NCBI GenBank assembly: GCA_028865725.1
Contig: JAGWJP010000001.1
Location: 294,568-358,567, forward strand
Origin: Patescibacteria group bacterium
Lineage (GTDB): Bacteria > Patescibacteriota > Minisyncoccia > UBA6257 > JACRHW01
Reading direction: 5' to 3'
Length of the DNA: 64,000 nt
Made by a program: the position numbers and the translations under genes. The notes under the pieces are model-generated. The model ran no database searches. It was not told the DNA's origin and was given only the letters and a program-made list of their open reading frames with translations. Positions 2,039 through 28,234 of this stretch are shown here, piece after piece (the stretch's first letter is position 1; each line of letters starts with the position of its first letter).

Positions 2039-3847
2039 TTAGTGGATCAGGGAGTGTGTGATGAGCTCAAAGAGAAACGCAAACGGAGATTGTCTATACA
2101 GTGAAGCTTGTGGAGAAGGTTGAGACGCGGGAGTGTTCTGCGGCATCATCGTCTGTGGCATTTGTGGAGTATTTTCTGGAGTAGGCAGGGGAGGGGCGGA
2201 GAGTGTTCCGGGTAGGGCATTTTCTTCTCCCCCTTGCGGTGACATTATATTTTGAGGAGGCATTTGTATATTTGTATTTTGGGGAGGGAATGATCCTTGC
2301 TGTTCTTGATTCGTATAGGGCGTCTCCGATGGTTGGTTTCCTTGCGGTCCTCCTTGTGGCATAAATTGCTGATTTCCTTCTTGCGGGGGCATCGAGCCTT
2401 GTTGTTGAGGATAATGTTCCTGAGGTATCATTCCATCTTGTGAGGGCATAGTATTCCGGTTTAGCTGGTTTGGCATTCTGTTTCCATTTTGATCACTATT
2501 TCCATGGAAGGGAGGGATCATCGTCTGCTGCTGACCGCTATGCGGCATTTCTTGTGGTCCGTTCATTCTTTGCTGTTGAGGACCATTCATGAAGGGCGTG
2601 TTCGATCCGCCAGATTCTTGTTGATGCGCGTTTTGCTGCGGCATTTGTGGAAAGCATTGGCTCATTTTTTTGCCGATATCCGATGATGGCATAATACTTC
2701 CACTTTGTAATTTTTGAAGTGTGTCTGCCCCGATAGTATTGTTCAAACACGTAAGTACGTCAGGAGGAATGTTTTGCAGCGATTTTTGCATCTGTCCCTG
2801 CTGGCTTTGCATATTCTGAAGATCTTGTTGCGAAATCAGGCCATTATCTTTCGCAAAGTTGAAACATGCTTCCTGATTGTTCGGATCTTTACAGAAGGCA
2901 TCGCATGATTCTTTTGATGTGCATCCGCCAGGGCCTTTTCCCCCCGTTTTTTTTGCGATGGCGGCATCTTCCGGTGTCATAAAGCCCGCGGCGACCGCGA
3001 AATTTGTGCATTCATCAAAATGTGCAGGTTCGGCGCAGTAGGCATCGCACGCGTCTTTTCCTTTGCAATTCGGCGGTGTTACTCCTTTTTGAAGCGCGGT
3101 GAGCACTCCTTGTGAATTTTTTTCTTCTTCCGGAGTCATGAGGCCTGCCTGTTTTGCAAACGTGATGCAGGTCGCCATGTGGGCAGGTTCGGCGCAGTAA
3201 GCATCGCACGCATCTTTACCGTTACAAGGCGGCGGCGTAGCTCCGGCGTCAATAGCAGCTACCATTTTCTTTGCATTTTCCAGATCCTGCCCCCTAAGAA
3301 ATCCTGCTGCTTCCCCGAACGCTACGCACACATGCATATGTGCCGGTTCGCTGCAGTAGGTGTCACATTCTTCTTTGTTCTTGCAAGGCGGAGGTTGCAC
3401 CCCTTTTGCAAGCGCAGATTGTATCTGTTCTGCCTGTTGCAGTTTATCAGGCGGCAGGATTCCTGTTTTCTTTGCAAATGCGACGCACTCGTTGATATGC
3501 CCAATATCATTGCAATACGCTTCACACGATTGCTGATCGGTGCACCCTCCCGGTCCCTGGGTGTCTGCGGCAATAAACTTTTTTGCGATGGCCACGTCGT
3601 TCGGAGACATCAGATTATGTTGTTCTGCAAAATCAAGACATGCTTGCACGTGGGAAGCATCATCGCAATATGTTTTGCAATCCGACTTGCTTGAGCAGTT
3701 GCCTAGGGCGGAAACAGGATAGCTGATGGTGGCGGGCGATGTAACTGGTGCAGTGCTCGTGCTTTGTGCATGAATGTGCCGCGCAGGAATCAAGACAAAA
3801 GCTGTTGCGAGACTTAAAAAAACGAATGAGAAAAGAACACGTTTCAT
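2039..3847 (-). CDS. secreted cysteine-repeat protein with Met/Gln/Pro-rich low-complexity C-terminal tail
   Basis: 602 aa with an N-terminal signal peptide (MKRVLFSFVFLSLATAFVLIPARHIHA). It has six or seven tandem ~50-aa repeats of the pattern C-x4-6-C-x3-C-x4-H-x3-C-x2-FA, for example CKGKDACDAYCAEPAHFDECTNFA. The last ~230 aa are Q/P/M/N-rich with repeated MPPQ/MPQ motifs. Confidence 0.6.
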   Translation of the reverse strand: MKRVLFSFVFLSLATAFVLIPARHIHAQSTSTAPVTSPATISYPVSALGNCSSKSDCKTYCDDASHVQACLDFAEQHNLMSPNDVAIAKKFIAADTQGPGGCTDQQSCEAYCNDIGHINECVAFAKKTGILPPDKLQQAEQIQSALAKGVQPPPCKNKEECDTYCSEPAHMHVCVAFGEAAGFLRGQDLENAKKMVAAIDAGATPPPCNGKDACDAYCAEPAHMATCITFAKQAGLMTPEEEKNSQGVLTALQKGVTPPNCKGKDACDAYCAEPAHFDECTNFAVAAGFMTPEDAAIAKKTGGKGPGGCTSKESCDAFCKDPNNQEACFNFAKDNGLISQQDLQNMQSQQGQMQKSLQNIPPDVLTCLNNTIGADTLQKLQSGSIMPSSDIGKKMSQCFPQMPQQNAHQQESGGSNTPFMNGPQQQRMNGPQEMPHSGQQQTMIPPFHGNSDQNGNRMPNQLNRNTMPSQDGMIPQEHYPQQQGSMPPQEGNQQFMPQGGPQGNQPSETPYTNQEQQGSFPPQNTNIQMPPQNIMSPQGGEENALPGTLSAPPLPTPENTPQMPQTMMPQNTPASQPSPQASLYRQSPFAFLFELITHSLIH

Positions 3848-4975: not shown

Positions 4976-5752
4976 ATGGTTATGAGAACGATGCTTGATA
5001 TTCTTGTACTCGTGGTGCTCAATTGCATCGCAGTTTTTGTTTCGGTTGTATGGCATACAGAATTTTTGACATCTACGTTTTTATTCCTGGGCATCCCTTC
5101 TCTTTACCTTATTCTTAGAGAGCGGCGCATAAGGCTCAATGTGGTCGGAGCAGCACTTATTGTGGGGTTGTTATTTTGTTTTGTCTTTGATTTTATCGCT
5201 GAATTTAACAAAGCTTGGGGGTGGAATGGGGGGCTTTTGTGGGGAAGGATTTTTGGTGTAGTACAGATCGACGTGATGGTGTGGTTTGTTTTGTGGCTAC
5301 TTCAGATCTTTCTTTTTTATGAGCATTTCATCGATCGTACCCGTCTTGTCTTATATAAAAGCGAACAACAATTAAAAATGTTCATTGCGGGCGTGTTAAG
5401 TGTTTTTTTACTTCTTGTGATCTACACCCCGTCTCCCTCCTTACTCTATATTTCCAAGGCCTACTTTGTACTTTGTCTTTTTGTTCTGATCCCTTTCTTT
5501 ATTATTTGTGTAAAAAAACCGAAGATAGTGCGGCGCACCCTGCTGATTATTCCCTATTTCTTTTTTGTCTATATCACTCATGAAATTACAGCATTGCAGC
5601 TGCATCAGTGGAATTTTCCAGGTGATTATCTTGGATGGATTCAAGTAATGGGGGTGCGTTTTCCTGTTGAGGAGTTTGTGTTTTGGATTATCTTGAGCAG
5701 TCTCGTGGGCGCAACCTATTATGAGTTTTATTTCGATAATCAAAAAAACTAG
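4976..5752 (+). CDS. polytopic membrane protein (possible lycopene-cyclase-domain-like motif)
   Basis: 258 aa with about 7 predicted TM segments. The C-terminal PVEEFVFW resembles the PxEE motif of CrtYcd-type domains, but the assignment is tentative. Confidence 0.35.
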   Translation: MVMRTMLDILVLVVLNCIAVFVSVVWHTEFLTSTFLFLGIPSLYLILRERRIRLNVVGAALIVGLLFCFVFDFIAEFNKAWGWNGGLLWGRIFGVVQIDVMVWFVLWLLQIFLFYEHFIDRTRLVLYKSEQQLKMFIAGVLSVFLLLVIYTPSPSLLYISKAYFVLCLFVLIPFFIICVKKPKIVRRTLLIIPYFFFVYITHEITALQLHQWNFPGDYLGWIQVMGVRFPVEEFVFWIILSSLVGATYYEFYFDNQKN

Positions 5753-5914: not shown

Positions 5915-7432
5915 TTAGGCAAATCCAGGAAAAAAATCTACTTTAATCTGGCGGCGCGGTACTCCCATTTGGTTCAGTATCGCCTCAAATGCAATAACCA
6001 TGGTACGAGGACCCGAGATATAGAAGGTGCATTCACAATAGTCAGGTATCTCTTTTGCAATGATCTCCGCACTGATCGATCGTGTGTAGATACCCGGAAT
6101 CGGACCTTGTTCTGCGGTTACGCTATATACTGTTTTGATTCCTAATTGTTCCCACGCTTCATCAAGGATGGGTTTATAGGCGATATCGGCCACTTTTTTG
6201 TTTGCGTAGAAAAGCGTAATGGGCCTGTGTTCCTGCATATCGATGAGGTATTTGAGCATACTGCGGAATGGAGTAATCCCAATCCCTCCCGCAATGAATA
6301 CCAGTTTTTGCGCCGGGTCGCGCGGAAGCGTAAATTCTCCTGCCAGTTGTGATGCAGTAATGGTGTCTCCTTGTTTCATCGCTGCGAGAGCGCGTTTAAA
6401 ACTGCTTCCCTGCGGATAGAATTTTACCCCTAGACGAATTTCTTGTTCTGTGGGAGAAGAGGCGATCGTGAAGTAACGGCGATTGCCGCGATCATCGGGG
6501 GACGCGTGACTGAGCGTCCACTCGAGATATTGCCCCGGGCGAAAAGAGAATGTGTGATCAGGGCGGAAGATAAAATCATACATGTCGGTTCCTATTTGTT
6601 CTACTGCGCGCAGAGAAAGAAGTAGACGTTCTTTTGGGCTTACTGCATAAGAAAAGATATTACCTGCGAGTAAGGCCAGTTCAGGCGTAAAATAAAATGA
6701 GCCAATGTGTGCAGCGGGCACGAACAAGGCGCCGACAATGGCACCGTAGAGAATGCGCATGGTACGCCCGGGAGGTGTCGTCAATGGTTCTGTGAGCATC
6801 ACAAAAGAAAAAAAGAAGAGTGATGAATGAAGGAGTGTCTGAAGTATTGGATTCAGGATTATTTTCGATGATGACGTGACTATACTTATTCCTAAGGCTA
6901 CTATAATGGCACTAAGAACAAGATCGGTTTTTTGTATTTTACGTACGACGAGAATGCCCCCCAGCACTACAAGCGGAAGAAGAGGAAGATTTCCTCCTAC
7001 CCACCATGTCGCTGATTGATTGATAGCTATTGCGGAGAGCGCTACTGCAAATGCGGCAGGGTTGAAGATGTGTTTTTTTCTGATCGCACAAAGATATTTG
7101 CATGCCATAGACCAGCTTCCCGCAAATATTAAAAATCCCAACCCTGCGGAATTTTGTGCGGTTACAGGAGAGATAATGAGTGCGAGAATGAATGCGGTAA
7201 TATAGACTGATTCTGCATTCTCCTGCGCATGAAAGACGTGAGCAAATACGCGATTTGTTATCCAAGTCACCACGAGAAGGACGATTGTGGAAAAGACGAT
7301 TGCCGTGGGATCATAGGGGAGCACTCCTAGCATGCTGAACAACGTCGCTGCGCCAAGGAGTGCGATAAGATAGTACAGTACCAAGCGATACATGGTGATC
7401 CTGTTAAGTGCGGTATCAATAAATGCGAACAT
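5915..7432 (-). CDS. RnfD/NqrB-like polytopic membrane domain fused to FNR-like FAD/NAD(P)H-binding oxidoreductase domain
   Basis: 505 aa. The N-terminal ~280 aa are multi-TM with FNPAAFA and MLTEPLTTP motifs, similar to the RnfD/NqrB TDP-region. The C-terminal ~220 aa carry FNR signatures: RRYFTIASSP (the RxYS FAD motif), GGIGITPFRSM (the NAD(P) motif) and YISGPRTM. Confidence 0.6.
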   Translation of the reverse strand: MFAFIDTALNRITMYRLVLYYLIALLGAATLFSMLGVLPYDPTAIVFSTIVLLVVTWITNRVFAHVFHAQENAESVYITAFILALIISPVTAQNSAGLGFLIFAGSWSMACKYLCAIRKKHIFNPAAFAVALSAIAINQSATWWVGGNLPLLPLVVLGGILVVRKIQKTDLVLSAIIVALGISIVTSSSKIILNPILQTLLHSSLFFFSFVMLTEPLTTPPGRTMRILYGAIVGALFVPAAHIGSFYFTPELALLAGNIFSYAVSPKERLLLSLRAVEQIGTDMYDFIFRPDHTFSFRPGQYLEWTLSHASPDDRGNRRYFTIASSPTEQEIRLGVKFYPQGSSFKRALAAMKQGDTITASQLAGEFTLPRDPAQKLVFIAGGIGITPFRSMLKYLIDMQEHRPITLFYANKKVADIAYKPILDEAWEQLGIKTVYSVTAEQGPIPGIYTRSISAEIIAKEIPDYCECTFYISGPRTMVIAFEAILNQMGVPRRQIKVDFFPGFA

Positions 7433-7455
7433 GGGTATAATAATTTTTTCCGTTT

Positions 7456-7992
7456 TTAAATTGTGGCAGGTTGGAGCGCGCTTTCTAGTGATTGTTGAAA
7501 TGCCATACTGGTATCAGTGGCACCTGAAACGATATTGACATGTGCATTTTGTGCCTGAATGGCTTCACGTTGCAAGAGAGGCATCGCCTGACTGTTAATG
7601 TAGCGTGATGTGCTTCTGTCATTCGGGTATTGCAGGAATGTGACATTAGTAATTACGCCGTTTTTTATTACGGCTTCCACTTGAACCGTCCCGTAATATG
7701 CATCTACCGGATCGCCTCGATAGGTTCCGTCTTTATATTTGCCATGTTGCGAAGAAAGGGTCGGGGCGGCAGGTTTTGCAGGTTCTGAGGCGGGGAGTGA
7801 TGAGGGGAGGGTAGAAACGGGCGTATTCGTCGTTTCAAGCAATTGCGACCCAGAAGAGACGGCAATTTGCTCCTCCGGTTGGGAAAGAAGGTTGTGAAGT
7901 GCGCGTTCCGGGGTGGTCCCTTTCATATTTACATACAAGGCATAGACGAGCGATGCCCCGATAAACCATATCGAGAGAGTAGTTTTTTTCAT
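7456..7992 (-). CDS. exported FMN-binding domain protein (NqrC/RnfG-like) with covalent-flavinylation motif
   Basis: 178 aa with an N-terminal signal anchor (LSIWFIGASLVYALYV). The FMN_bind domain ends in NIVSGATDTSMAF, which is the [S/T]GA[T/S] ApbE flavinylation site. It sits 23 bp upstream of the RnfD-FNR fusion on the same strand. Confidence 0.6.
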   Translation of the reverse strand: MKKTTLSIWFIGASLVYALYVNMKGTTPERALHNLLSQPEEQIAVSSGSQLLETTNTPVSTLPSSLPASEPAKPAAPTLSSQHGKYKDGTYRGDPVDAYYGTVQVEAVIKNGVITNVTFLQYPNDRSTSRYINSQAMPLLQREAIQAQNAHVNIVSGATDTSMAFQQSLESALQPATI

Positions 7993-8032
7993 AAGTCTTT
8001 ATTTGTTACTACACAGGAGGTGGATATTTATT

Positions 8033-8746
8033 TCATTCGTGGAGATTTGTCACTACATGGATACCATAGGCTTGGATAATCCCATTATTGTTGTCTCCTG
8101 CCACGTAGAGTTTATCGCCTTCATGAAGAGTGGCGACATTAAAAACAGAGGGAAGCATGACAGTCCATGTACCATCATCGGTGTCGCGGTCTGTATCATC
8201 GTGGCTGATCACCACCGTTTTATTTTTAATAGAAATTATTTTTCCGCGGAAGATTCCATGCGTGACATGAGAATCATGAATTTGTTCGTACCACGAGCCA
8301 ATAAGCGGCAACTTATCCTGATCTGCCTTGTCGAGAAGCGCGCGGTGGAGCGATGTGCTGTTAAGTGCGAGGCTTCCTAGGAGGGCGACCATGATGATAA
8401 GGAGAAAGATGGCAAGTAGCGAGGTGCGGTACCCAAATTTAAATAAACGCCAGAGCCATTCCACAAGAAGAACCAGAATGATATCGATTTCAAAAAGCAT
8501 CCAGGGAAAGAGAATTAAAAACGTGATAATACCTGACAGGCCAAAGCCAAGTAAAAACTGTTCCCCACTTTCTTGAAGACTAAAGAGTACAAAGCTCATG
8601 ATGAACATCGTGAGTATAAGGGCGCCCAAAGAAAGAACAGCTACCAAAATAATTTGTGCCGCAAAATAGAGTTTGGGGCGCATGTGTATTTTCTTCTCTT
8701 TAATTTTTTCCAACACACGTGTTGAAATGTCCGTATCGTGAGGCAT
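8033..8746 (-). CDS. membrane protein between the ECF sigma gene and the FMN module (possible anti-sigma or system component)
   Basis: 237 aa with about 4 TM helices, then a C-terminal ~100-aa extracytoplasmic domain rich in Asp/Thr. It lies immediately downstream of the ECF sigma gene, with an 8-bp gap. It has no canonical anti-sigma HxxxCxxC motif. Confidence 0.35.
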   Translation of the reverse strand: MPHDTDISTRVLEKIKEKKIHMRPKLYFAAQIILVAVLSLGALILTMFIMSFVLFSLQESGEQFLLGFGLSGIITFLILFPWMLFEIDIILVLLVEWLWRLFKFGYRTSLLAIFLLIIMVALLGSLALNSTSLHRALLDKADQDKLPLIGSWYEQIHDSHVTHGIFRGKIISIKNKTVVISHDDTDRDTDDGTWTVMLPSVFNVATLHEGDKLYVAGDNNNGIIQAYGIHVVTNLHE

Positions 8747-8754
8747 AGTGTATA

Positions 8755-9333
8755 TTAGTGCGTATTATAATGTGTCGCGGAATGAAGTAATTTTTTTAAT
8801 AGTTCTTTTCCGCGTCGCAATCTGATGCCCACCGTCCCTATTGGAATGTGGAGGATGTCTGCAATTTCTTGATAGCGTAGCTCTTCTCCATAAAACAAAA
8901 TGAGTACTTCCCGATAGATTGCAGGAATTGTATTCAGGCCTGACTCCAACATCGCATTCATATGCTGCGCCTCCTCTTTATTTTCCAATTTTTCTTCGTA
9001 GGTGGGGTGAGAAAGGAGTGTGTCAAAATTCATGAAAAGCAAAGGAGTGTGTTGTCGTGTCCGGAGTGCGTTCACAAATGCGTTATGTGCAATGCGGTAG
9101 AGCCACGGAGAAAATCGTTTTGAAGTATCGAAACTTTGGATATTTTGATACGCACGTATAAAAATATCTTGGACGATATCTTCAATGTGGCTGTGTTCTG
9201 CAAGGAATCTTCGGCCATAACGAAGCAGACGATCTTGGTACCTCTTCATTAATACCCCAAATGCCATCTCATTATTTCCTTGCACGCGTGCGACGAGTTC
9301 CTCGTCGGATAAATTCTCCTCAGAAATAGCCAT
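8755..9333 (-). CDS. ECF-type RNA polymerase sigma-70 family factor
   Basis: 192 aa. Region 2 reads DIVQDIFIRAYQNIQSF...WLYRIAHNAFVNALR. Region 4 reads REVLILFYGEELRYQEIADILHIPIGTVGIRLRRGKELL. Confidence 0.8.
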   Translation of the reverse strand: MAISEENLSDEELVARVQGNNEMAFGVLMKRYQDRLLRYGRRFLAEHSHIEDIVQDIFIRAYQNIQSFDTSKRFSPWLYRIAHNAFVNALRTRQHTPLLFMNFDTLLSHPTYEEKLENKEEAQHMNAMLESGLNTIPAIYREVLILFYGEELRYQEIADILHIPIGTVGIRLRRGKELLKKLLHSATHYNTH

Positions 9334-9431: not shown

Positions 9432-10817
9432 TTGATATTCCTCATGCCTATCACGCTCCGGTCTCTTTATGTATTTCTCGCTATAATCCTGTGGTGTGGC
9501 GGGTTCTTTTTGAATGTTTCTGTTTTTTCTGCGCACGGACAAGTACTTACCACTGAAGAACGGGCACAGCTTGAGGCTCAACTCGCTGAAGTACAAGCCG
9601 AACAGGCACAGGCACAACATGATTTGAGCATCGCACAGACCAAATCCTCCTCACTCCAGAATGATATTAACGTACTTACGGCAAAGATCAGATCTGAACA
9701 GCTCGATATTCAAGCCAAAAATCTTTTAATTAAAACACTGGGCGATAACATTACCACAAAACAAGGCGAGATTAATACGCTTGATGCCGCCATTGCGCGT
9801 GACAAAGAAGATATCGGTGCGCTATTCCGTGAAGTGCAGCAAACTGACAATATTACCATTCCGGAAGTATTGCTTTCGAGTGGATCATTGTCTGCATTTT
9901 GGGACGATATTATAAAGATTGAGACAGTACAGCAAAGTCTAGGGGTGCTTTCGTTGCAGCTTGCTGTTCACGAAGCTTCAAGTACTGCTGAAAAAAATAC
10001 ACTTGTAGTGAAACAAACCGCTGCTATTGATACGCGCTATGCGATCCAGCAGGAACAAAAAACGGTGCAGGCCAATCAAGCGCAGCAAAAACAACTTCTC
10101 GCTATCAGTAAGAATAATGAACATTCCTACACAGCACTCGTGGAGCAAAAGAAAAAACAGGCTGATGCAATCAAGGCGCGGTTGTTTGCTCTCGCAGGAG
10201 GATCCAATCCTATTCCATTTGGACAAGCGTACTCGTACGCACGTTCTGCACAAAAGGGGACAGGGGTGGATCCCGCATTTCTTCTTGCGATCATGACGCA
10301 GGAATCAAATCTTGGTACCAACCAAGGTACGTGCTATTTGACGGATACGAAAACAGGCGCGGGGGTGAGCGTAAAATCTGGTCGAGCGTTTGATAATGTC
10401 ATGAGTCCCACACGCGATGTGCCCCCGTTTCTTACGATTGCCGCTGCGCTTGATGTAGATCCTCTTCATACGGTCGTGTCGTGTCCTCAGTCGGTAGGAT
10501 GGGGAGGCGCGATGGGGCCGGCGCAATTTATCGCATCGACATGGATGCTCTTGAAGGATCGCGTAGCTTCTGCGCTTGGCTTTTCCGGTATGGCTAATCC
10601 ATGGGATCCGCGTGATGCATTTATGGCGTCGGCCATGTATTTATCTGATTTAGGAGCAAGTTCCGGAGGATATACTGCCTCGCGTAATGCGGCCTGCCGA
10701 TATTATTCAGGTAATGTGTGCAGCAAGTCGTCACTCATTGCAAGCTATGGCGATAGCGTGATGTCGCTTGCGTCCACGATCCAGACCACGGAAATCGATA
10801 AAATTACCGGCATTTAG
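9432..10817 (+). CDS. coiled-coil protein with C-terminal lytic-transglycosylase-like (lysozyme-like) domain
   Basis: 461 aa with an N-terminal TM or signal. About 230 aa are heptad-rich coiled coil (QLEAQLAEVQAEQAQAQHDL...). The C-terminus has FLLAIMTQESNLG, the catalytic-Glu ES motif, and GAMGPAQFIASTW, a GLMQ-like motif. Confidence 0.5.
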   Translation: MIFLMPITLRSLYVFLAIILWCGGFFLNVSVFSAHGQVLTTEERAQLEAQLAEVQAEQAQAQHDLSIAQTKSSSLQNDINVLTAKIRSEQLDIQAKNLLIKTLGDNITTKQGEINTLDAAIARDKEDIGALFREVQQTDNITIPEVLLSSGSLSAFWDDIIKIETVQQSLGVLSLQLAVHEASSTAEKNTLVVKQTAAIDTRYAIQQEQKTVQANQAQQKQLLAISKNNEHSYTALVEQKKKQADAIKARLFALAGGSNPIPFGQAYSYARSAQKGTGVDPAFLLAIMTQESNLGTNQGTCYLTDTKTGAGVSVKSGRAFDNVMSPTRDVPPFLTIAAALDVDPLHTVVSCPQSVGWGGAMGPAQFIASTWMLLKDRVASALGFSGMANPWDPRDAFMASAMYLSDLGASSGGYTASRNAACRYYSGNVCSKSSLIASYGDSVMSLASTIQTTEIDKITGI

Positions 10818-11952: not shown

Positions 11953-12531
11953 ATGAAAAATATGATTACCATTGGACACCCTATCGAAGATTTTGAAGTA
12001 AAGGCATATGATCCGCGTAAGGATCGTTTTGTAACAGTGAAGTCTGAGGAATATCGTGGAAGGTGGGTGCTGCTCGTGTTTTATCCGGCTGATTTCACGT
12101 TTGTTTGTCCCACGGAGCTTGAGGATTTAGCGGATCATTATGATGCGTTCAACGCACTCGGAGCAGAGGTCATGAGTATCTCGACCGATACTGAGTTCGT
12201 GCACAAGGCATGGCATGATCACTCAGAAGCAATTAAAAAAGTGCCGTTTCTTATGCTTGCAGACCCAACCGGAAATGTGTGTCGTGAATTCGGAGTGTAT
12301 CTTGATCAAGAGGGACTTGCGTTACGCGGAACGTTTGTGATTGACCCCGATGGAGTATTAAAAACAATTGAGATTCACGATAATGCTATAGGGCGAAGCG
12401 CGAAAGAATTGTTGCGCAAGCTTCAGGCGGCAAAATTTGTTCGCGAACACAAGGGCAATGTGTGTCCCGCAAGTTGGGAGCCGGAAGGGAAAACACTTGA
12501 GCCCGGCATTGATCTGGTGGGGAAGATCTAA
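11953..12531 (+). CDS. typical 2-Cys peroxiredoxin (AhpC/TSA family)
   Basis: 192 aa. The peroxidatic Cys lies in FTFVCPTEL and the resolving Cys in GNVCPASW. Confidence 0.8.
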   Translation: MKNMITIGHPIEDFEVKAYDPRKDRFVTVKSEEYRGRWVLLVFYPADFTFVCPTELEDLADHYDAFNALGAEVMSISTDTEFVHKAWHDHSEAIKKVPFLMLADPTGNVCREFGVYLDQEGLALRGTFVIDPDGVLKTIEIHDNAIGRSAKELLRKLQAAKFVREHKGNVCPASWEPEGKTLEPGIDLVGKI

Positions 12532-19011: not shown

Positions 19012-19767
19012 ATGACCTACAAAGAAACAAGGCTTCTCATGGGAATGCCGATTACTGTAGAAATCGTAGACAAGATGGAAGGTCCTCAGGATATTGAGGA
19101 TGTATTTGCGTACCTTATATATATTGATGAGACGTTTAGTACCTACAAAGACACAAGCGAGATCTCTCGTATCAATCGAGGGGAATTAACGCCAGAAGAA
19201 TATAGTGATGACATGAAGACCGTATTTGCCCTTTCTCAAAGCATGAAGCAATCCACACATGGCTATTTTGATATCATGCGTGGTGATGGCACCTATGATC
19301 CTTCAGGGCTTGTAAAAGGATGGGCCATAGAAGGTGCTGTGGATATTCTTTCAAAAAAAGGTTTCTCAAATTTTTTTGTAGATGCCGGTGGTGATGTGCA
19401 GGTAAGTGGGCACAATGCGCAAGACGTCGATTGGAAGGTTGGAATTAGAAATCCGTTTCATCGCGATGAGATTGTAAAAGTGGTGTCTCTTCACAATGAA
19501 GCCATCGCTACTTCAGGAACCTATATTCGCGGTGCGCACATTTACAACCCGCTCAATCGTAGTGAGAGTCTAAACGATGTTGTGAGTTTGACAGTCATCG
19601 GCCCCACCATATGTGATACGGATTGTTACGCCACTGCTGCGTTTGCAATGGGATACAAAGGGATTCGTTTCATTGAAAATATTCACGGATTTGAGGGCTA
19701 TATGATTGACAAGGAGGGCATGGCAACAATGACAACTGGGTTTGAGCGTTATTGTGTCCCGCATTGA
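19012..19767 (+). CDS. apbE: FAD:protein FMN transferase (ApbE family)
   Basis: The four ApbE signatures are LMGMPITVEI, DPSGLVKGWAIE, DAGGD and AIATSGTYIRG. It has 251 aa and no N-terminal signal peptide or lipobox. Confidence 0.7.
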   Translation: MTYKETRLLMGMPITVEIVDKMEGPQDIEDVFAYLIYIDETFSTYKDTSEISRINRGELTPEEYSDDMKTVFALSQSMKQSTHGYFDIMRGDGTYDPSGLVKGWAIEGAVDILSKKGFSNFFVDAGGDVQVSGHNAQDVDWKVGIRNPFHRDEIVKVVSLHNEAIATSGTYIRGAHIYNPLNRSESLNDVVSLTVIGPTICDTDCYATAAFAMGYKGIRFIENIHGFEGYMIDKEGMATMTTGFERYCVPH

Positions 19768-21724: not shown

Positions 21725-24700
21725 TTGCGTATGAAAAAAATCAATTTATTTTTTGCTGCCGTTTTTATTGTTTCTGCAGCAAGTTTTTTATACGAATCTC
21801 ATAATGTATCTGCATTTACCGTTGCAGGTGCATTTTTACGAGATTCACAATCATTTAACGTGTTGTTCGATGCTGATGTTGCAAGTTCGACCTTCTCGAC
21901 ATCGACGTTGTCGCTGAGTACTTCTACGCTTCAGGCGGTATCAACCTTCCCAGAAAATACTCGAGAAATTTTTGGAAGTGTCTCTGGTACACTCACAACC
22001 GCCGATACGGTAACGGTATCAAGTACGGCACACGATACGTTGGGCAATGCAAACCTTGCCAGTACGACACCGTTTACCTTTTTACCTGCAATTAAAATTG
22101 CTGCGGTTCGTTCTGGAACAACAGGAAATAATCTAAATGAGTTCATCATGTTATATAACACGATGAATCAAAGTTGGAATGCCAGCTCTGCTCTCCATCT
22201 CCACGTGCTTAATGCGAGCGGACACGACAACGTCATTCCGCTTACGTTTGCAACGTCAACTATTCCGGCAAATGGCTTCTTTTTAATTGCGTCTGCCAAT
22301 GGATATGGTGGTACGATATCTCCCGACGCAACGTATAGTTCTTCCACAGATATCTTAGCTACCTCTACTACCGCTATTTTTATAAATTCCACCTCAACTC
22401 CAACTGATGCTTCTTCTATAGGATCGGTTATTGATAAGGTGGAGTGGGGTGCATCGGCTCAAATTGGGTCTTCAGTTTCTTTCTCGTTTGCCACTACGAC
22501 TGCTAGTACAAGCTTACCGCTTGATTATACATTTGTACGCAAGGCATCTTCCGCGTCTACTCCCGTGAGTATGGCCTCTGGTGGATCTGATAGTAATAAA
22601 GGCAATGGATATGATACGAGAGATAATGCGCAAGATTTTGTAATGCTTTCCGGGTCGTTGTCACCTGCGCTCAAAAATTCTGCGAGTCCGAGCGAGTTTG
22701 CGTCCGGAGGAGGGGTGCAGGATGCGACTGTTCCTATTGTTATGGGATCGTTTCCAAGCGGAATGAATGGGGAGATGGTGCCCACGGATCTGCAGTTCGT
22801 TGGATTTGGGTTTAATAAATCAATGGACGGTTCTACTATCACCTCTTCTACTGTTTCATTAGTACAGCAAGGCCAAGCCACTAATATGTGTTCTTCTGTG
22901 AGTTATAGTAATTCATTTAATACCAGTGGACCTCCGGGGCAATGTACAATTCCTGCAGGCGCGCTTATAGCGGGTTCTACCTATGTTTTCACGATCAAGG
23001 GATCGAGCTCAACCCCGAGCGTTCATGATTCTTCTGGTAATGTACTGAATCAACCGAGTGGACAAAATGGAAATGCCAATCATGATTATCAAGTCATCTT
23101 TACTCCTACATCCGGTTTTACTCTTACTCCGCAAACCCCCCCCAGTATTATAGGAAGCTTTCCCGCACCCGGTGCAAATGGAATTCCTACTAATATATCG
23201 AGTATTTCAATTGGTTTTAGTCAAGCAATAGACCCCGCATCACTCTCTGGGGTTACCCTATTGAGGAGCGGAGGCTCTAATGTACTCAATGCGTTAACAC
23301 CAAAACTTTCTTCTGATGGAAAGTCTGCAACAATTCCCGTATCCGCATCTCCCCTTTTAGCGGGAACGACTTATACGCTCACTGTGCCCACGACAGTAAG
23401 AAATAGCAATAACGTAAATTTGCCACAGACGTATACTGCTTCATTTGTTACCGGTGCGTCTGGCGGTGATATGACGGGGCCCCTTGTGTTAGGACATCTT
23501 CCGAACATTGCGACGGGGGTTCCTGTGAACGCCACAGATATTCATCTTTCTACTGATGATGCGTTGAACCCGACTACGATTACTTCCAGTACGGTTCAAA
23601 TTACTGATGCCAACGGCAATCATATTCCTGGCACATTAACTTATGATTCACTTTCTCAGGAGATTGTGTTTGTGGCTGATAATGTATTTCAAACCAACAC
23701 TCTTTATACGGTAACGTTAAACGCAGCAAGTGCAACACCTGTGATCGAAAACGTGGTAGGATTGCCTCTCCAAGATAGTGACGGGAGTAGTGATAATAAA
23801 TATACATTTAGCTTTACCACTTCGGCGTCTCCTGATACGACCCAGCCTGGACTTTTGGTTGCGAATGCAAACACGTTTTCACTTTCTCTTACTTTTGATG
23901 AAGCAGTGAAACAGACAGAGGCAGAGAATATTGCCAATTACGCCCTTACAAGCGGAGGAAATCCTGTAACACTTTCTTCATTTAATGGGAATACTGCATC
24001 GTACGACCTTTCGACGCATACTGTTACCATCAATAATCTTGCGCTTACCGCAGGAGCATCTTTTAGTGTGACGGTTTCCAATGTGCATGATCTTTCAGGG
24101 AATGTTATCGATCCTACAAAGGTAAGTGCTGGTGGTACCGTTCTTGCCCCTACTTTAAATGGGGGTATCATTGGTATGGGTGGCGGATATATTGCCCCTA
24201 CCAACGGCTTGCCTACGGGATTTTCCAGTGGATCATTTGGTTTTGTTCCTCAGGTAGGTGTTCATCCCATGAATACAACTGCGGGATTTACATCTGGGTA
24301 TGCAGTCGATCTTCCTATTTCTACACAAATCCCTGCGTCGGGAAAAATTGTACTTACCTTTCCCAGCTCATTTACGCTGGCCAATGCTATTGCTGACACC
24401 TTTAGTCCCGCCAATAACGATATCAACGGACCAGGTACTGGTACTGTTACGATTGCAAGCGTAGTGGGCGATGATACAGCGCATACAGTTACCGTGACAT
24501 TAGGCGGTACAGGAACCCAATCGAATGGAGGTGATACGCATGACTTTTTGCATTTTGATCTCGCTCAAATCGTCAATCCTACTGTACCTAATACCGCGGA
24601 TGGTTATACGATTGACATACGAACACTAAATGGGTCAAACTCTCTCGAATCTTTTACCTCCATGCCGTTTTTCATAACTTCGGCAGGAAGTAATAGTTTG

Positions 24701-27700
24701 ACAGTAAATCTTACTGCAAGTGGCGCAACAAATGGAACTTCAACGGTATATCTTTTGTCTCCTCAAACAGGTCCTATTTCGAGAGTGTCAACGGCATTTG
24801 TGGGGGCGAGCTCAACCGTTATCTTTTCTGGATTGCAGAGTGGAATGTACGCACTGATGACCGATCCTATTATTACGCTCACCGGAGGAACATTTATTGG
24901 CCAGTCAAATCCGACTCCTGTGAATGTCAATGGAAGCACATCATTTGCTCTTGCGCTTTCTCCTGCAGGTTCGCTTGCTTCAACGACGGTAAGCATTCAT
25001 GCCACAGGAGCAAAAAAGGTTTCTGTATTTGCAGGGGGTCCTAATGGTTATGTTGACACGCCGCTTACCACTTCAAACGGAACGACTACGGTAGCGATTT
25101 ATTATCCTGCAAACGGTGATTATACGGTAGGTGTTGGTCCGCAGATGAGTAAAACGTTCAACGGTCCTCCTCCTGCACCTGATTATGTGATGCCGCAGCC
25201 AGTTCAAGTTCATGTTGCTTCAAATCTTGCTTCACAAACGACACTGAGTTTCGATCTTGTTTCCGCAGGTCTTACGATCGCCGGTTCTGTCAAAGATGGT
25301 TCTGGAAAAGCAATTACAGGTGCAAACGTGTACGCGTATTCCCCGCAGGGAGGATCAGGGACTTTTGGTACCACAGCATCAGACGGTAGCTTTGCATTAA
25401 ATGTTGCCGCGGGAAGTTATGAAGTAGGCGCACGCGCTCCAGGGTTTCCTTCTGGCATTGATACGCCAGTAGTCGTAGATTCTAGTGGCAGCCTCTTTGT
25501 AAATGGCGCTGCAGCATCTTCTTCCTCGGTAACTGTTAAATTAAGCAAGGGCGGTGTGACCATAAGCGGTAAGGTAACAGATGGAACCAATCCTGTTCAA
25601 GGAGCACAAGTGTGGGCATATTGCGACTCGAGCGTAAGTAACAATGCTTGTTTTGGGCCAAATAGCAATGTTTCTGCACAAACGGATTCTTCCGGAGCCT
25701 TTACACTTTATGTCGGCAATGGAACATGGAAGATAGGATCATTTATTCCAGGATATGGCCAACAGCCCATTCTTACCCAGGTTATTTCTGGTTCAAATGT
25801 AACGCTTTCTGATATTAGGCCGTCAGCAACAGGAACATTTGCGACAGTAAGCGGTACGGTGTGTACGAACACCACATCTGATTGTACGAGCGGATCTCCT
25901 TCTGCGGTTTCTGGCGCAATGATAAGAATTCAAGGAACGGACGCAAGTGGAAATTTCTATTCTAATTCTGTAATTTCTGGGAGCGACGGATCATACTCGT
26001 TTGCATCAAGCGTTCCTTCAGGAGCTGGATCAAGCTATCGAGTGCTTGGCAATGTGGCCGGGCTTGGTGAAATTGCGCCAACAGCAAACTTTTCTGTAAC
26101 AGGAAATGTGAGCAATAAAGATCTTGTTTTGAAAGCGGGGCGCACTGTGAATCTCAATGTGAGCAACCCGCCTTCCACCTACGATATGTTCCTTAAATTC
26201 ACAAACACTACCTCTGGAGTAGCTAATTATCTTACGTTGCACAATAATGCTTCAGGAACAATATCGCTTCAGAATGGATCTACCTATGCTATTGATGCGC
26301 GCGCGCAAGGATTTTCTTTCCCTGTTTCTTTGATTACATTGACAGGGGGTACGGCAACCTATTCAACATCGACGGGGCAGCTTGCTCTTAACGGAGGCTC
26401 CTCGGATACCGTTACTCTTAATCTCGCCTTTCCTGCAGCAAATGTGGTAAGCGGTACGGTGAAAGATGGTTCTGGTACGTTATTATCGAATGCCTGGGTT
26501 GATTTTGCCGATCCAACACACGGATCTCACTTTGGAACGCAATCTAATGCAAGTGGCACCTATTCGCTTCCTATTCAGGATGGTTCGTATCAAGTTTCTG
26601 TATATGCGCCGGGATACTTGCCAAACCCAACATCGCTTTCTTTGGATGGAGGCACGATCACACTTGGAAATGCAACAACTTCAGCAAGTACGGTAAACCT
26701 TATCGCGAACAAGTCGAACCTTTTAATTGCGGGTACTATTACTATAGATGGTTCTCCCGCAGCGAATGCGCTGGTAAAAGGTACGCTTTTGGGTGGTAGT
26801 ACAAGTATTGTGACTGCAAACACTGACGGTACATATTCTTTGCCTGTATCGAATGGCAGCTGGACGGTTACTGCTTCTGCAAATGGATATCAAAATAAAG
26901 ATTATGCTTCAACAGTTACCGTGAACGGTTCTTCGGTATCAGGAGTCGATATCAATCTTACTTCTCTTGCTACTCTCGGTAATCCATCAACCCTTTCTAT
27001 CGTGCCTTCTCAAGGCGGAACGCTTCAAAATGCTTCAGGCACGTTGACGATCGCAGTTCCTGCAAATGCATTGAGTACTTCTGCAAACGCTGGTAAACTC
27101 GCAGCAACCGAAACGAGTAATGTGATCAATACTGCTTCTGCAAAAGTTTTTGGAAACGGTGTTGATATCAGCGCGCAAGATTCTTCTAATAATCCGCTTT
27201 CAAGTGGGTTTACCGATAATGTAGTAATTACGATGGATATAGCAAGCTCCTCATTTGCTGCAGATGCCCTTACAAGCACTAGTACGGCAAGCAAGATGGA
27301 ATTGGGATATTTCAAATCCTCACTGAATGACTGGGTCCCCGTTGAGACAACGCTTACGTATGAGGATGCAAATGGTGCTCCTGTAACTGCGGCGAGCGAT
27401 TTGAGCAACGTTGACCATATCAGCCTGTCGGTTCCTACAAAACACTTTACCGTGTTTGGCATAATCACTCCCACCGATGCGCTTGCGCCAAGTGCTCCTA
27501 CTAACGTTTCTGCGACTCAAAGCGGATCTTCTGCGGTGGTGACATGGACTGCACCGACTACGAATTCTGATGGAACTGCGCTTTCCGATTTGCAGGAATA
27601 TGAGATATATCGGGATACAAGCGCAAGCGGGAGTTTTACAACGCAAGTAAATTCAAGCCAAGTAACGGGGACAACATTTACCGATTCCACTGTTTCAGCA

Positions 27701-28234
27701 GGCACCACATATTACTATAAAGTTTCCGCAGCCGATACGAGTGGAAATGAATCTTCAAAGTCATCTGTTTCATCGGGGCTTGCTGTCGCTGCTCTTGTTT
27801 CCGGAGGAGGTTCCTACTCATCTGCTGCCTCTTCAGCAGCAAACCCTGTAGTTACCACTACAAACACAGAAACCTCAACGGTTGAAAATGCAACGCCAAC
27901 TTCTTCTCCCGTTTCTGCTTCTGTAAGTACGGTAACCACCCCAACATCTACGACAGCCCCCCAAGCAGTTTCTTCTACTGCACATGCAGCCGCAACACTT
28001 ACTCGATCGCTTTCTCTCGGCAGCAAAGACTCCGAAGTGACAACCCTTCAAAAACTTCTCGCATCCGATCCGTCACTTTATCCGGAAGGACTCATATCAG
28101 GCTACTTCGGCGCACTTACCAAGAAAGCAGTCATTCGATTCCAAGAAAAATATGGTATCGCGACTGATGCAGCAACAGCCGGACTTGTAGGACCAGAGAC
28201 ACGTGCGAAATTGATGGAGGTGTTAGGAAGATAG
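21725..28234 (+). CDS. giant (2169 aa) cell-surface protein with LTD, Ig-like, CarboxypepD_reg-like, FN3 and peptidoglycan-binding domains
   Basis: Signal/TM segment MRMKKINLFFAAVFIVSAASF. A lamin-tail-like domain spans roughly aa 120-270 (AIKIAAVRSGTTGNNLNEFIMLYNT...GFFLIASANGYG). Multiple Ig-like/Big repeats follow, then four or more CarboxypepD_reg-like repeats (for example GSVKDGSGKAITGANVYAY...SYEVGARAPGF). An FN3 domain follows (PSAPTNVSATQSGSSAVVTWTAP...YYYKVSAADTSGNES). The C-terminus has a PG_binding_1 domain (LSLGSKDSEVTTLQKLL...GYFGALTKKAVIRFQEKYGI). All minus-strand ORFs inside are judged spurious. Confidence 0.8.
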   Translation: MRMKKINLFFAAVFIVSAASFLYESHNVSAFTVAGAFLRDSQSFNVLFDADVASSTFSTSTLSLSTSTLQAVSTFPENTREIFGSVSGTLTTADTVTVSSTAHDTLGNANLASTTPFTFLPAIKIAAVRSGTTGNNLNEFIMLYNTMNQSWNASSALHLHVLNASGHDNVIPLTFATSTIPANGFFLIASANGYGGTISPDATYSSSTDILATSTTAIFINSTSTPTDASSIGSVIDKVEWGASAQIGSSVSFSFATTTASTSLPLDYTFVRKASSASTPVSMASGGSDSNKGNGYDTRDNAQDFVMLSGSLSPALKNSASPSEFASGGGVQDATVPIVMGSFPSGMNGEMVPTDLQFVGFGFNKSMDGSTITSSTVSLVQQGQATNMCSSVSYSNSFNTSGPPGQCTIPAGALIAGSTYVFTIKGSSSTPSVHDSSGNVLNQPSGQNGNANHDYQVIFTPTSGFTLTPQTPPSIIGSFPAPGANGIPTNISSISIGFSQAIDPASLSGVTLLRSGGSNVLNALTPKLSSDGKSATIPVSASPLLAGTTYTLTVPTTVRNSNNVNLPQTYTASFVTGASGGDMTGPLVLGHLPNIATGVPVNATDIHLSTDDALNPTTITSSTVQITDANGNHIPGTLTYDSLSQEIVFVADNVFQTNTLYTVTLNAASATPVIENVVGLPLQDSDGSSDNKYTFSFTTSASPDTTQPGLLVANANTFSLSLTFDEAVKQTEAENIANYALTSGGNPVTLSSFNGNTASYDLSTHTVTINNLALTAGASFSVTVSNVHDLSGNVIDPTKVSAGGTVLAPTLNGGIIGMGGGYIAPTNGLPTGFSSGSFGFVPQVGVHPMNTTAGFTSGYAVDLPISTQIPASGKIVLTFPSSFTLANAIADTFSPANNDINGPGTGTVTIASVVGDDTAHTVTVTLGGTGTQSNGGDTHDFLHFDLAQIVNPTVPNTADGYTIDIRTLNGSNSLESFTSMPFFITSAGSNSLTVNLTASGATNGTSTVYLLSPQTGPISRVSTAFVGASSTVIFSGLQSGMYALMTDPIITLTGGTFIGQSNPTPVNVNGSTSFALALSPAGSLASTTVSIHATGAKKVSVFAGGPNGYVDTPLTTSNGTTTVAIYYPANGDYTVGVGPQMSKTFNGPPPAPDYVMPQPVQVHVASNLASQTTLSFDLVSAGLTIAGSVKDGSGKAITGANVYAYSPQGGSGTFGTTASDGSFALNVAAGSYEVGARAPGFPSGIDTPVVVDSSGSLFVNGAAASSSSVTVKLSKGGVTISGKVTDGTNPVQGAQVWAYCDSSVSNNACFGPNSNVSAQTDSSGAFTLYVGNGTWKIGSFIPGYGQQPILTQVISGSNVTLSDIRPSATGTFATVSGTVCTNTTSDCTSGSPSAVSGAMIRIQGTDASGNFYSNSVISGSDGSYSFASSVPSGAGSSYRVLGNVAGLGEIAPTANFSVTGNVSNKDLVLKAGRTVNLNVSNPPSTYDMFLKFTNTTSGVANYLTLHNNASGTISLQNGSTYAIDARAQGFSFPVSLITLTGGTATYSTSTGQLALNGGSSDTVTLNLAFPAANVVSGTVKDGSGTLLSNAWVDFADPTHGSHFGTQSNASGTYSLPIQDGSYQVSVYAPGYLPNPTSLSLDGGTITLGNATTSASTVNLIANKSNLLIAGTITIDGSPAANALVKGTLLGGSTSIVTANTDGTYSLPVSNGSWTVTASANGYQNKDYASTVTVNGSSVSGVDINLTSLATLGNPSTLSIVPSQGGTLQNASGTLTIAVPANALSTSANAGKLAATETSNVINTASAKVFGNGVDISAQDSSNNPLSSGFTDNVVITMDIASSSFAADALTSTSTASKMELGYFKSSLNDWVPVETTLTYEDANGAPVTAASDLSNVDHISLSVPTKHFTVFGIITPTDALAPSAPTNVSATQSGSSAVVTWTAPTTNSDGTALSDLQEYEIYRDTSASGSFTTQVNSSQVTGTTFTDSTVSAGTTYYYKVSAADTSGNESSKSSVSSGLAVAALVSGGGSYSSAASSAANPVVTTTNTETSTVENATPTSSPVSASVSTVTTPTSTTAPQAVSSTAHAAATLTRSLSLGSKDSEVTTLQKLLASDPSLYPEGLISGYFGALTKKAVIRFQEKYGIATDAATAGLVGPETRAKLMEVLGR

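Follow-up and report, generated by a model that had tools for sequence, protein, structure and literature searches.

The 64,000-nucleotide stretch of a Patescibacteria genome that was analyzed here over its full length (hereafter, the window; assembly GCA_028865725.1, contig JAGWJP010000001.1) carries on its minus strand four co-directional genes that combine a gene for an extracytoplasmic function (ECF) sigma factor with the components of a likely Nqr/Rnf-like, flavin-based transmembrane electron-transfer system. In the order of transcription, these genes encode the sigma factor (8755-9333, 192 aa), a putative anti-sigma or sensor membrane protein without a family in Pfam or NCBIfam (8033-8746, 237 aa), an NqrC/RnfG-like subunit with an FMN_bind domain (7456-7992, 178 aa), and a fusion of an RnfD/NqrB-like membrane domain to a ferredoxin-NADP reductase (FNR)-type module (5915-7432, 505 aa). 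The open reading frames (ORFs) of the original prediction were confirmed in position, strand and spacing, with gaps of 8, 40 and 23 bp between successive genes; on the minus strand, no terminator-like hairpin was found between the four genes and no sigma-70-like promoter in the gaps. The Rfam scan of the whole window yielded no family that reached the gathering score, so there is no riboswitch, including no riboswitch for flavin mononucleotide (FMN) in the vicinity of the flavin genes. The domains named in the original prediction were all matched above the respective Pfam gathering cut-offs.

The N-terminal half of the fusion protein (residues 1-265; 6638-7432, minus strand) matches the Pfam family NQR2_RnfD_RnfE over residues 155-261 (E = 3.9e-8; score of 33.5 bits, cut-off 27.7), and the C-terminal module (residues 269-505; 5918-6628, minus strand) matches FAD_binding_6 (E = 2.3e-5) and NAD_binding_1 (E = 4.2e-14), is assigned by NCBIfam to the FNR-type module and combines the features of the FNR superfamily, namely the RxY[S/T] motif for flavin adenine dinucleotide (FAD), the GxGxxP motif for NAD(P)H and the two-domain fold of a beta-barrel and a Rossmann domain. 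When a profile of the N-terminal half was compared with the PDB, only RnfD (E = 0.0039) and NqrB (E = 0.035) were matched, so a placement of this domain outside the RnfD/NqrB clan does not apply. The motifs on which that proposal relied (FNPAAF, MLTEPLTTP, RRYFTIASSP and GGIGITPFRSM) are present and are invariant or nearly so in alignments of 20-25 homologs. The AlphaFold model (pLDDT 77.9, pTM 0.73) contains approximately 10 transmembrane (TM) helices followed, from residue 269, by the beta-barrel and the Rossmann domain. Given that the predicted inner loops contain 8 lysine and arginine residues, compared to a single one on the outer loops, the N- and C-termini are predicted to be cytoplasmic, and the NAD(P)H module with them. 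The protein is 100% identical to a protein from the Patescibacteria metagenome-assembled genome GCA_028868355.1 and has at least 7,995 homologs, the best 120 of which are 59-67% identical to it and of equal length.

Between TM helices 5 and 6, the position of the flavinylation loop in NqrB and RnfD, the fusion protein has a loop of approximately 22 residues, compared to approximately 68 in NqrB (about 46 residues shorter), which is predicted to face outward and includes the motif QSATWW (residues 139-144; 7001-7018, minus strand). Among 186 homologs, alanine 141 is conserved in 96%, threonine or serine 142 in 93%, and both tryptophans (143 and 144) in 100%; the remaining 7% have valine, isoleucine, alanine or glutamine in position 142, which argues against an obligatory covalent link to a flavin at this site. 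Homology of QSAT (residues 139-142) to the SGAT of NqrB and RnfD is not demonstrable by sequence alignment, nor is a structural match to Thr236 of NqrB, and the AlphaFold model has low confidence at this loop. The A-[T/S]-W-W loop may be a flavin-contact site, degenerate or real, or else a residual flavinylation site. The lack of conservation of the flavinylated threonine of NqrB/RnfD in proteins of this type has been reported previously (Huang et al., 2024, bioRxiv 2024.03.13.584918, PMC10979944).

The 178-aa protein contains a full-length FMN_bind domain (PF04205, E = 1.2e-7), with residues 99-174 spanning positions 2-77 of the 77-position profile. The domain is preceded by MKK and a hydrophobic helix, a likely signal anchor, and by a neutral or acidic linker rich in serine, threonine and proline. 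Linkers of this kind are typical of exported domains, and together with the distribution of charges, this layout indicates that the FMN_bind domain lies outside, as the original prediction held. Near the C-terminal end, the sequence VSGATDTS aligns residue by residue with VSGATYTS of an FMN-binding domain of solved structure (8p2a, E = 8.7e-11), so that the context of the putative flavinylation threonine is retained upon alignment. The motif [D/N/S/E]xx[S/T]GA[T/S] was detected in 45 of the 46 FMN_bind homologs from the related loci. The combination of PF04205 with a C-terminal Dxx[S/T]GA[T/S], by which substrates of the flavin transferase ApbE are recognized, is thus found here with asparagine (NIVSGAT) instead of the textbook aspartate, a replacement shared with 16 of the 46 homologs. 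Thr159, the codon of which occupies positions 7516-7518 (minus strand), is accordingly the predicted residue for flavinylation by ApbE.

Fusion and FMN_bind protein together correspond to a family that has been delineated bioinformatically. Méheust et al. (2021, eLife 10:e66878, PMC8238504) described as 'NQR/RNF-like' those proteins that combine an N-terminal NqrB/RnfD domain (PF03116) with a C-terminal PF00175 domain in a flavinylation gene cluster; the window protein joins PF03116 and an NqrF-type PF00175 in a single chain, and within the five-gene range in which that definition looks for ApbE or an FMN_bind protein with a signal peptide, the FMN_bind gene is located 23 bp upstream. According to Huang et al. 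(2024), the cluster has only two apparent subunits, as does the window operon, and in their AlphaFold-multimer model for Ktedonobacter racemifer, which they described as high confidence, the flavinylation site of the NqrC/RnfG-like subunit is located beside an apparent pocket for a non-covalently bound flavin within the NqrB/RnfD-like partner. Such systems occur for the most part among members of the candidate phyla radiation and genomes of the Chloroflexota/Actinobacteria type, and share with the window operon the fusion protein next to an NqrC/RnfG-like FMN_bind protein, the associated ApbE and the model of electron transfer from NAD(P)H to an extracytosolic flavin; the window operon differs in that ApbE is encoded approximately 11 kb outside the cluster and that the cluster is preceded by the gene pair for the ECF sigma factor and a membrane protein with an oligonucleotide/oligosaccharide-binding (OB) fold. 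Thus, of the four-gene architecture, which the original prediction did not recognize as a described system, the part formed by the fusion and FMN_bind genes is already described, whereas the linkage to a sigma factor appears to be new: the word 'sigma' does not occur in the texts of Méheust et al. or Huang et al., and literature searches retrieved no paper that ties an ECF sigma factor to an Nqr/Rnf-like system. Likewise, the proposed transmembrane electron conduit coincides with the published hypothesis and is not a new mechanism.

Compared to Na+-NQR (NqrB, NqrC and NqrF) and Rnf (RnfD and RnfG), which are encoded in six-subunit operons with RnfD or NqrB scoring above the family cut-offs, the window operon lacks NqrA/D/E, RnfA/B/C/E and the Fe-S domain, has the much shorter loop described above and an NAD(P)H module that is fused directly to the NqrB-like domain, and presumably supports a one-way outward flow of electrons instead of a semicircular one. 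A functional analogy, without homology of the membrane parts, can be drawn with the flavin-based extracellular electron transfer of Listeria (Ndh2/EetAB/PplA/FmnB) and with NOX/ferric-reductase enzymes such as SpNOX. The shared logic is that cytoplasmic NAD(P)H is oxidized by an FNR-type or NDH module and the electrons cross the membrane; in Listeria, they reach an ApbE-flavinylated, outward-facing FMN_bind protein, as proposed for the window system. The membrane carrier is quinone/EetAB or a di-heme ferric-reductase domain in those systems, and an RnfD/NqrB-like flavin domain here.

For comparison of gene order, 83 related loci were collected, 3 from species genomes with a single-protein query (including Ktedonosporobacter rubrisoli) and 80 from metagenomes with an alignment query. 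Most commonly, FMN_bind, ApbE and the fusion follow one another in this order on a single strand, and the stop codon of one gene often overlaps the start codon of the next. Among the 68 loci with a full-length fusion gene, 34 contain both upstream genes, 9 FMN_bind only, 9 ApbE only (the contig ends there) and 16 neither gene; many of the latter are truncated, and five divergent ones encode an FMN_bind-like protein that was missed by phmmer. Altogether, in 43 of the 68 loci the gene immediately upstream of either the fusion or ApbE is FMN_bind, and most of the remaining loci are truncated contigs. As in the window, FMN_bind directly precedes the fusion, without ApbE in between, in L004, L006, L008, L017, L019, L032, L051, L086 and L088. 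The absence of other Rnf/Nqr subunits from the operon, as originally claimed, was confirmed: no Rnf/Nqr-type Pfam family was detected within 10 kb on the source contig, and no further structural or Rnf/Nqr-type gene recurs near the fusion in the 68 loci.

Other genes do recur in these neighborhoods. A stand-alone FNR-like protein (PF00175) of approximately 230 aa, which shares 38% identity with the fusion's C-terminal half, is encoded a few kb from the cluster in several loci (L001:18560-19246, just beyond the low end of the window; L087:2372-3079; L004:6-614), and on the source contig its gene adjoins genes for PQ-loop-like and cupredoxin proteins. Genes for DUF2127 membrane proteins are found near the clusters L087 (10297-11527), L086 (9231-9722), L089 (3468-3971) and L001 (21217-21518). 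In L087, DUF2127 is followed by a gene for a VIT1 iron transporter, which echoes the adjacency of VIT1 to six clusters reported by Méheust et al. (2021).

The window encodes a displaced third component, an ApbE-type flavin transferase (19012-19767, plus strand, 251 aa), approximately 11 kb from the operon and not within five genes of it. This is the sole significant tblastn match in the window for the cluster ApbE, and it is 55% identical to the ApbE that is encoded between FMN_bind and the fusion in K. rubrisoli. The ApbE proteins of the clusters match PF02424 with E-values of 1e-36 to 1e-45, and in more than 30 loci (within L002-L091) the ORF allows no more than 6-9 residues ahead of the first conserved strand (MKxTRxxMGMPITVEI), too few for a signal peptide; the window copy is leaderless as well. 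We found no comment on leaderless ApbE in the texts of Méheust et al. and Huang et al. The former study accepted a cluster if one of its target genes, no matter which, had a signal peptide, and so did not address the matter. The leaderless ApbE raises the question of the route, or the membrane face, by which the partner protein becomes flavinylated.

The first gene of the unit encodes an ECF (group 4) sigma factor, as originally predicted: the protein, of approximately 190 aa, consists of the sigma-2 and sigma-4 regions only (Sigma70_r2, E = 2e-19; Sigma70_r4_2, E = 1e-12; each above the gathering cut-off) and scores 102.9 bits against TIGR02937 (sigma70-ECF; cut-off 42.9), and its best equivalog-type matches are SigW-like and below the cut-off. 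The 237-aa membrane protein encoded immediately downstream is modeled (pLDDT 82.4) with a short cytoplasmic amphipathic helix (residues 7-16) in the lysine- and arginine-rich N-terminus, TM helices at approximately 25-60, 70-101 (with a kink at an invariant FPW) and 110-129, two short helices and a five-stranded barrel, an extracytoplasmic OB-fold (residues 165-232), with the acidic loop HDDTDRDTDDGTW. Both the model and the distribution of charges are best compatible with approximately three TM helices, the N-terminus inside and the C-terminus outside; the outward domain of the original prediction was therefore retained but three helices appear likelier than the four that had been proposed.

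This protein belongs to a large Patescibacterial family: an exhaustive profile search retrieved 2,804 cluster representatives with E <= 1e-3, of which 575 have E <= 1e-30, and nearly all of these are full-length proteins of approximately 240 aa. The conserved features are SFxxFSxHESGEQFLLGFG after the first TM helix and an acidic HNDxDxDxDDGTW loop in the barrel. In all nine contexts, the family member is encoded directly after an ECF sigma factor, with an overlap or a gap of at most 18 bp, which suggests that it is probably the anti-sigma or sensor partner. The flavin genes follow the membrane protein only in the closest sub-branch; in a distant member, P0329, the ECF sigma gene overlaps the gene in question and a convergent sortase gene comes next, without flavin genes nearby, and in another, P0250, the sigma gene also overlaps. 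Hence the constant partner of the family is the sigma factor and not the redox genes. Considering that the protein is encoded immediately downstream of the sigma factor, is coupled to it, and combines a membrane anchor with an outward domain, it is, on the grounds of synteny and predicted architecture, most likely the cognate partner of the sigma factor, either an anti-sigma factor or a sensor. The arrangement resembles SigW-RsiW and SigV-RsiV, in which the ECF sigma gene is likewise followed, with an overlap or a tiny gap, by a gene for a membrane protein whose N-terminus faces inward and which exposes a sensor-like domain on the outer side, and the resemblance extends to the SigW-like similarity of the window sigma factor and to weak matches of family members to DUF4179, which we take to be the TM-proximal region of RsiV-type anti-sigma factors. 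Sub-threshold matches among 29 family members were to DUF5666 (6 of 29), DUF4179 (4 of 29) and Sigma_reg_N (a single one). The window protein differs from those anti-sigma factors in having no recognizable anti-sigma domain, approximately three TM helices where those have a single one, and an outer domain with an OB-fold.

A provisional view of the sigma linkage as incidental, based on the 83 loci found via the fusion, was overturned by searching from the membrane protein. The word-indexed relatives of the latter number 62, all of them from Patescibacteria, Minisyncoccota or Paceibacterota, and the lengths of their contigs coincide with those of five of the 120 best fusion homologs. In all six contexts that were examined for homologs with 40-50% identity to the window protein, the order is ECF sigma factor, membrane protein, FMN_bind, (ApbE), fusion, with an orthologous sigma gene upstream of the membrane protein in L087-L091; one of these clusters, L087, includes an extra 256-aa gene and has the DUF2127 and VIT1 genes downstream. 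With the window included, sigma factor, membrane protein and flavin genes follow one another in 7 of 7 contexts of the closest sub-branch, with gaps of 8-57 bp or overlapping genes. In a rough neighbor-joining tree of the fusion proteins, the sigma-linked clusters fall in two places, namely a clade of L089, L090 and L091 and the clade of the window itself, in which clusters without the sigma factor are interspersed among them. The sigma-linked clusters are a small fraction of the total, and their sampling is biased. Among the 41 loci whose upstream sequence extends for 1.5 kb or more, the pair is confined to the five that were found via the membrane protein. The linkage is thus real and conserved within a sub-clade, yet it is the minority state of the family. 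A different subset of clusters (L017, L024, L027, L040, L047, L048 and L085; for example, L085:303-4560) has a PAS histidine kinase and a response regulator beside FMN_bind, ApbE and the fusion, which suggests that dedicated signal control of the system is a recurring theme.

Taken together, these findings make it likely that the locus encodes a member of the Nqr/Rnf-like flavin-based transmembrane electron-transfer family, which in a sub-clade of Patescibacteria has come to lie downstream of an ECF sigma factor and the membrane protein that accompanies it, and for which we infer the following electron path. NAD(P)H would be oxidized on the FAD of the cytoplasmic FNR-type module of the fusion; the electrons would traverse the membrane via one or more non-covalent flavin sites in the RnfD/NqrB-like domain, arrive at the FMN on Thr159 of the membrane-anchored, outward NqrC/RnfG-like protein, to which it would be attached by the ApbE encoded approximately 11 kb away, and be handed on to an extracytoplasmic acceptor. 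With the 237-aa protein as anti-sigma factor or sensor, a cue on the envelope side would free the sigma factor, which would transcribe its own four-gene unit. For the sigma-linked sub-clade, an autoregulated ECF unit of four or five genes is probable, with the OB-fold domain as the part that would sense the cue. What is new, accordingly, is the conserved module of sigma factor and OB-fold sensor, the displaced ApbE and its lack of a leader, and the core is a known bioinformatic family.

Several observations weigh against this interpretation. For every member of the system, the donor and the acceptor of electrons and the direction in which these flow are inferences. Most Nqr/Rnf-like clusters have no sigma factor: no homolog of the sigma factor or the membrane protein was found in the 83 loci retrieved via the fusion, the pair is absent from all 36 informative loci among them, and two close relatives of the fusion on long contigs, P0003 (67% identity) and P0015 (66%), lack both genes. 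No convincing shared ECF-type -35/-10 motif was found upstream of the six sigma genes. No cytoplasmic anti-sigma domain of the zf-HC2/RskA type was matched by Pfam or NCBIfam in the window protein or the 29 family members, and only approximately 24 cytoplasmic residues precede the first TM helix. Finally, the leaderless ApbE is hard to reconcile with an exported substrate and is unexplained.

The sparse distribution of the pair and the missing promoter motif also bear on an alternative that we consider unlikely, namely that the sigma factor and the membrane protein are a mere neighboring regulatory unit and that the flavin genes have their own promoter outside the sigma regulon. Such independence would also accord with the distant sigma/membrane-protein pairs that adjoin unrelated genes, such as the sortase, and with the histidine kinases and response regulators of other clusters (e.g., L085). 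Against this stands the preservation of the order sigma factor, membrane protein, FMN_bind in 7 of 7 contexts, the window included, on two branches of the tree of fusion proteins and with membrane proteins as little as 40% identical, with intergenic gaps of only 25-57 bp and no terminator in the window. No convincing motif was found in the gaps between membrane protein and FMN_bind; a recurring 'GTGTA' may be part of the ribosome-binding region.

A more specific version of the regulated system has, in our estimate, a small chance of being correct. The ECF sigma factor and the OB-fold sensor would detect an envelope cue, perhaps a metal or an oxidant that binds to the acidic, conserved DxDxDxDDG loop, and switch on a minimal outward flavin reductase, driven by NAD(P)H, for use as an outlet for electrons that can be induced or as a device for iron or redox repair; the leaderless ApbE would reflect an unconventional flavinylation, on the cytoplasmic face before export or by way of an unrecognized export route, and the A-[T/S]-W-W loop could provide another site for flavin. 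Patescibacteria generally lack respiratory chains.

It is rather improbable that the 237-aa protein is a third structural redox subunit, for instance one that docks the acceptor via the OB-fold, and not an anti-sigma factor. Beyond the close sub-branch, members of its family retain the overlap with a sigma gene in the absence of Nqr/Rnf-like genes, more than 99% of the fusion homologs come without it (62 word-indexed relatives compared to at least 7,995), and the published two-subunit model is described as being of high confidence without it; what such a role has in its favor is the flavin-gene context within the sub-branch itself.

Equally doubtful is the possibility that the standard topology and direction are wrong, with flavinylation and perhaps the FMN_bind domain itself in the cytoplasm and no outward conduit. 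The lack of room for a signal peptide on ApbE in more than 30 loci, the window copy included, would fit this view, and the one-signal-peptide rule of Méheust et al. left the matter aside; yet the FMN_bind proteins have the MKK, hydrophobic helix and linker typical of export, the NqrB-equivalent flavin loop of the fusion is predicted to face outward, and the published complex model places the flavinylated residue at an outward pocket. That the fusion is the RnfD of a conventional Rnf complex with the other subunits elsewhere in the genome, as its NCBI name ('RnfABCDGE type electron transport complex subunit D') would imply, is highly improbable, given that it scores far below the cut-offs for rnfD (TIGR01946, 16.1 bits against 207) and NqrB (PRK05349, 15.3 against 414) and carries its own NAD(P)H module, that no RnfA/B/C/E-like gene is located within 10 kb or recurs in the 68 loci, and that the literature defines the family as two-subunit.

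In the candidate phyla radiation, few predicted devices for the transfer of electrons across the membrane are as widespread as the Nqr/Rnf-like system. A module of sigma factor and sensor that is conserved and dedicated to it offers a concrete clue to the conditions of its use, and the cue to which the OB-fold domain responds would indicate which acceptor or stress the system serves. Because the basic published picture is unchanged, the advance is incremental and not conceptual.

Several other genes surround the operon in the window. A gene for a peroxiredoxin (AhpC/TSA; 11953-12531, plus strand) is located 2.6 kb away, and DsbA and VKOR genes are also found near the operon; in L089, AhpC, DsbA and VKOR genes are located upstream of the sigma gene. 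These neighbors and VIT1 are weak hints of function. A 258-aa multi-TM ORF without a Pfam family (4976-5752, plus strand) is convergent with the fusion gene; it was rejected as a conserved partner because none of the related loci encodes a homolog, and a match to the 256-aa gene inside the L087 cluster was rejected as well. Further along the minus strand, positions 2039-3847 encode a 602-aa predicted secreted protein with approximately seven tandem cysteine-rich modules (C..K..C..YC....H...C..FA) and a long tail rich in glutamine and proline, which has no Pfam family and a weak defensin-like match (E = 1.8e-4). On the plus strand, a coiled-coil lytic transglycosylase with an SLT domain (9432-10817) is encoded divergently from the sigma gene, and a predicted surface protein of 2,169 aa, rich in serine and threonine and with a signal peptide, is encoded at 21725-28234.

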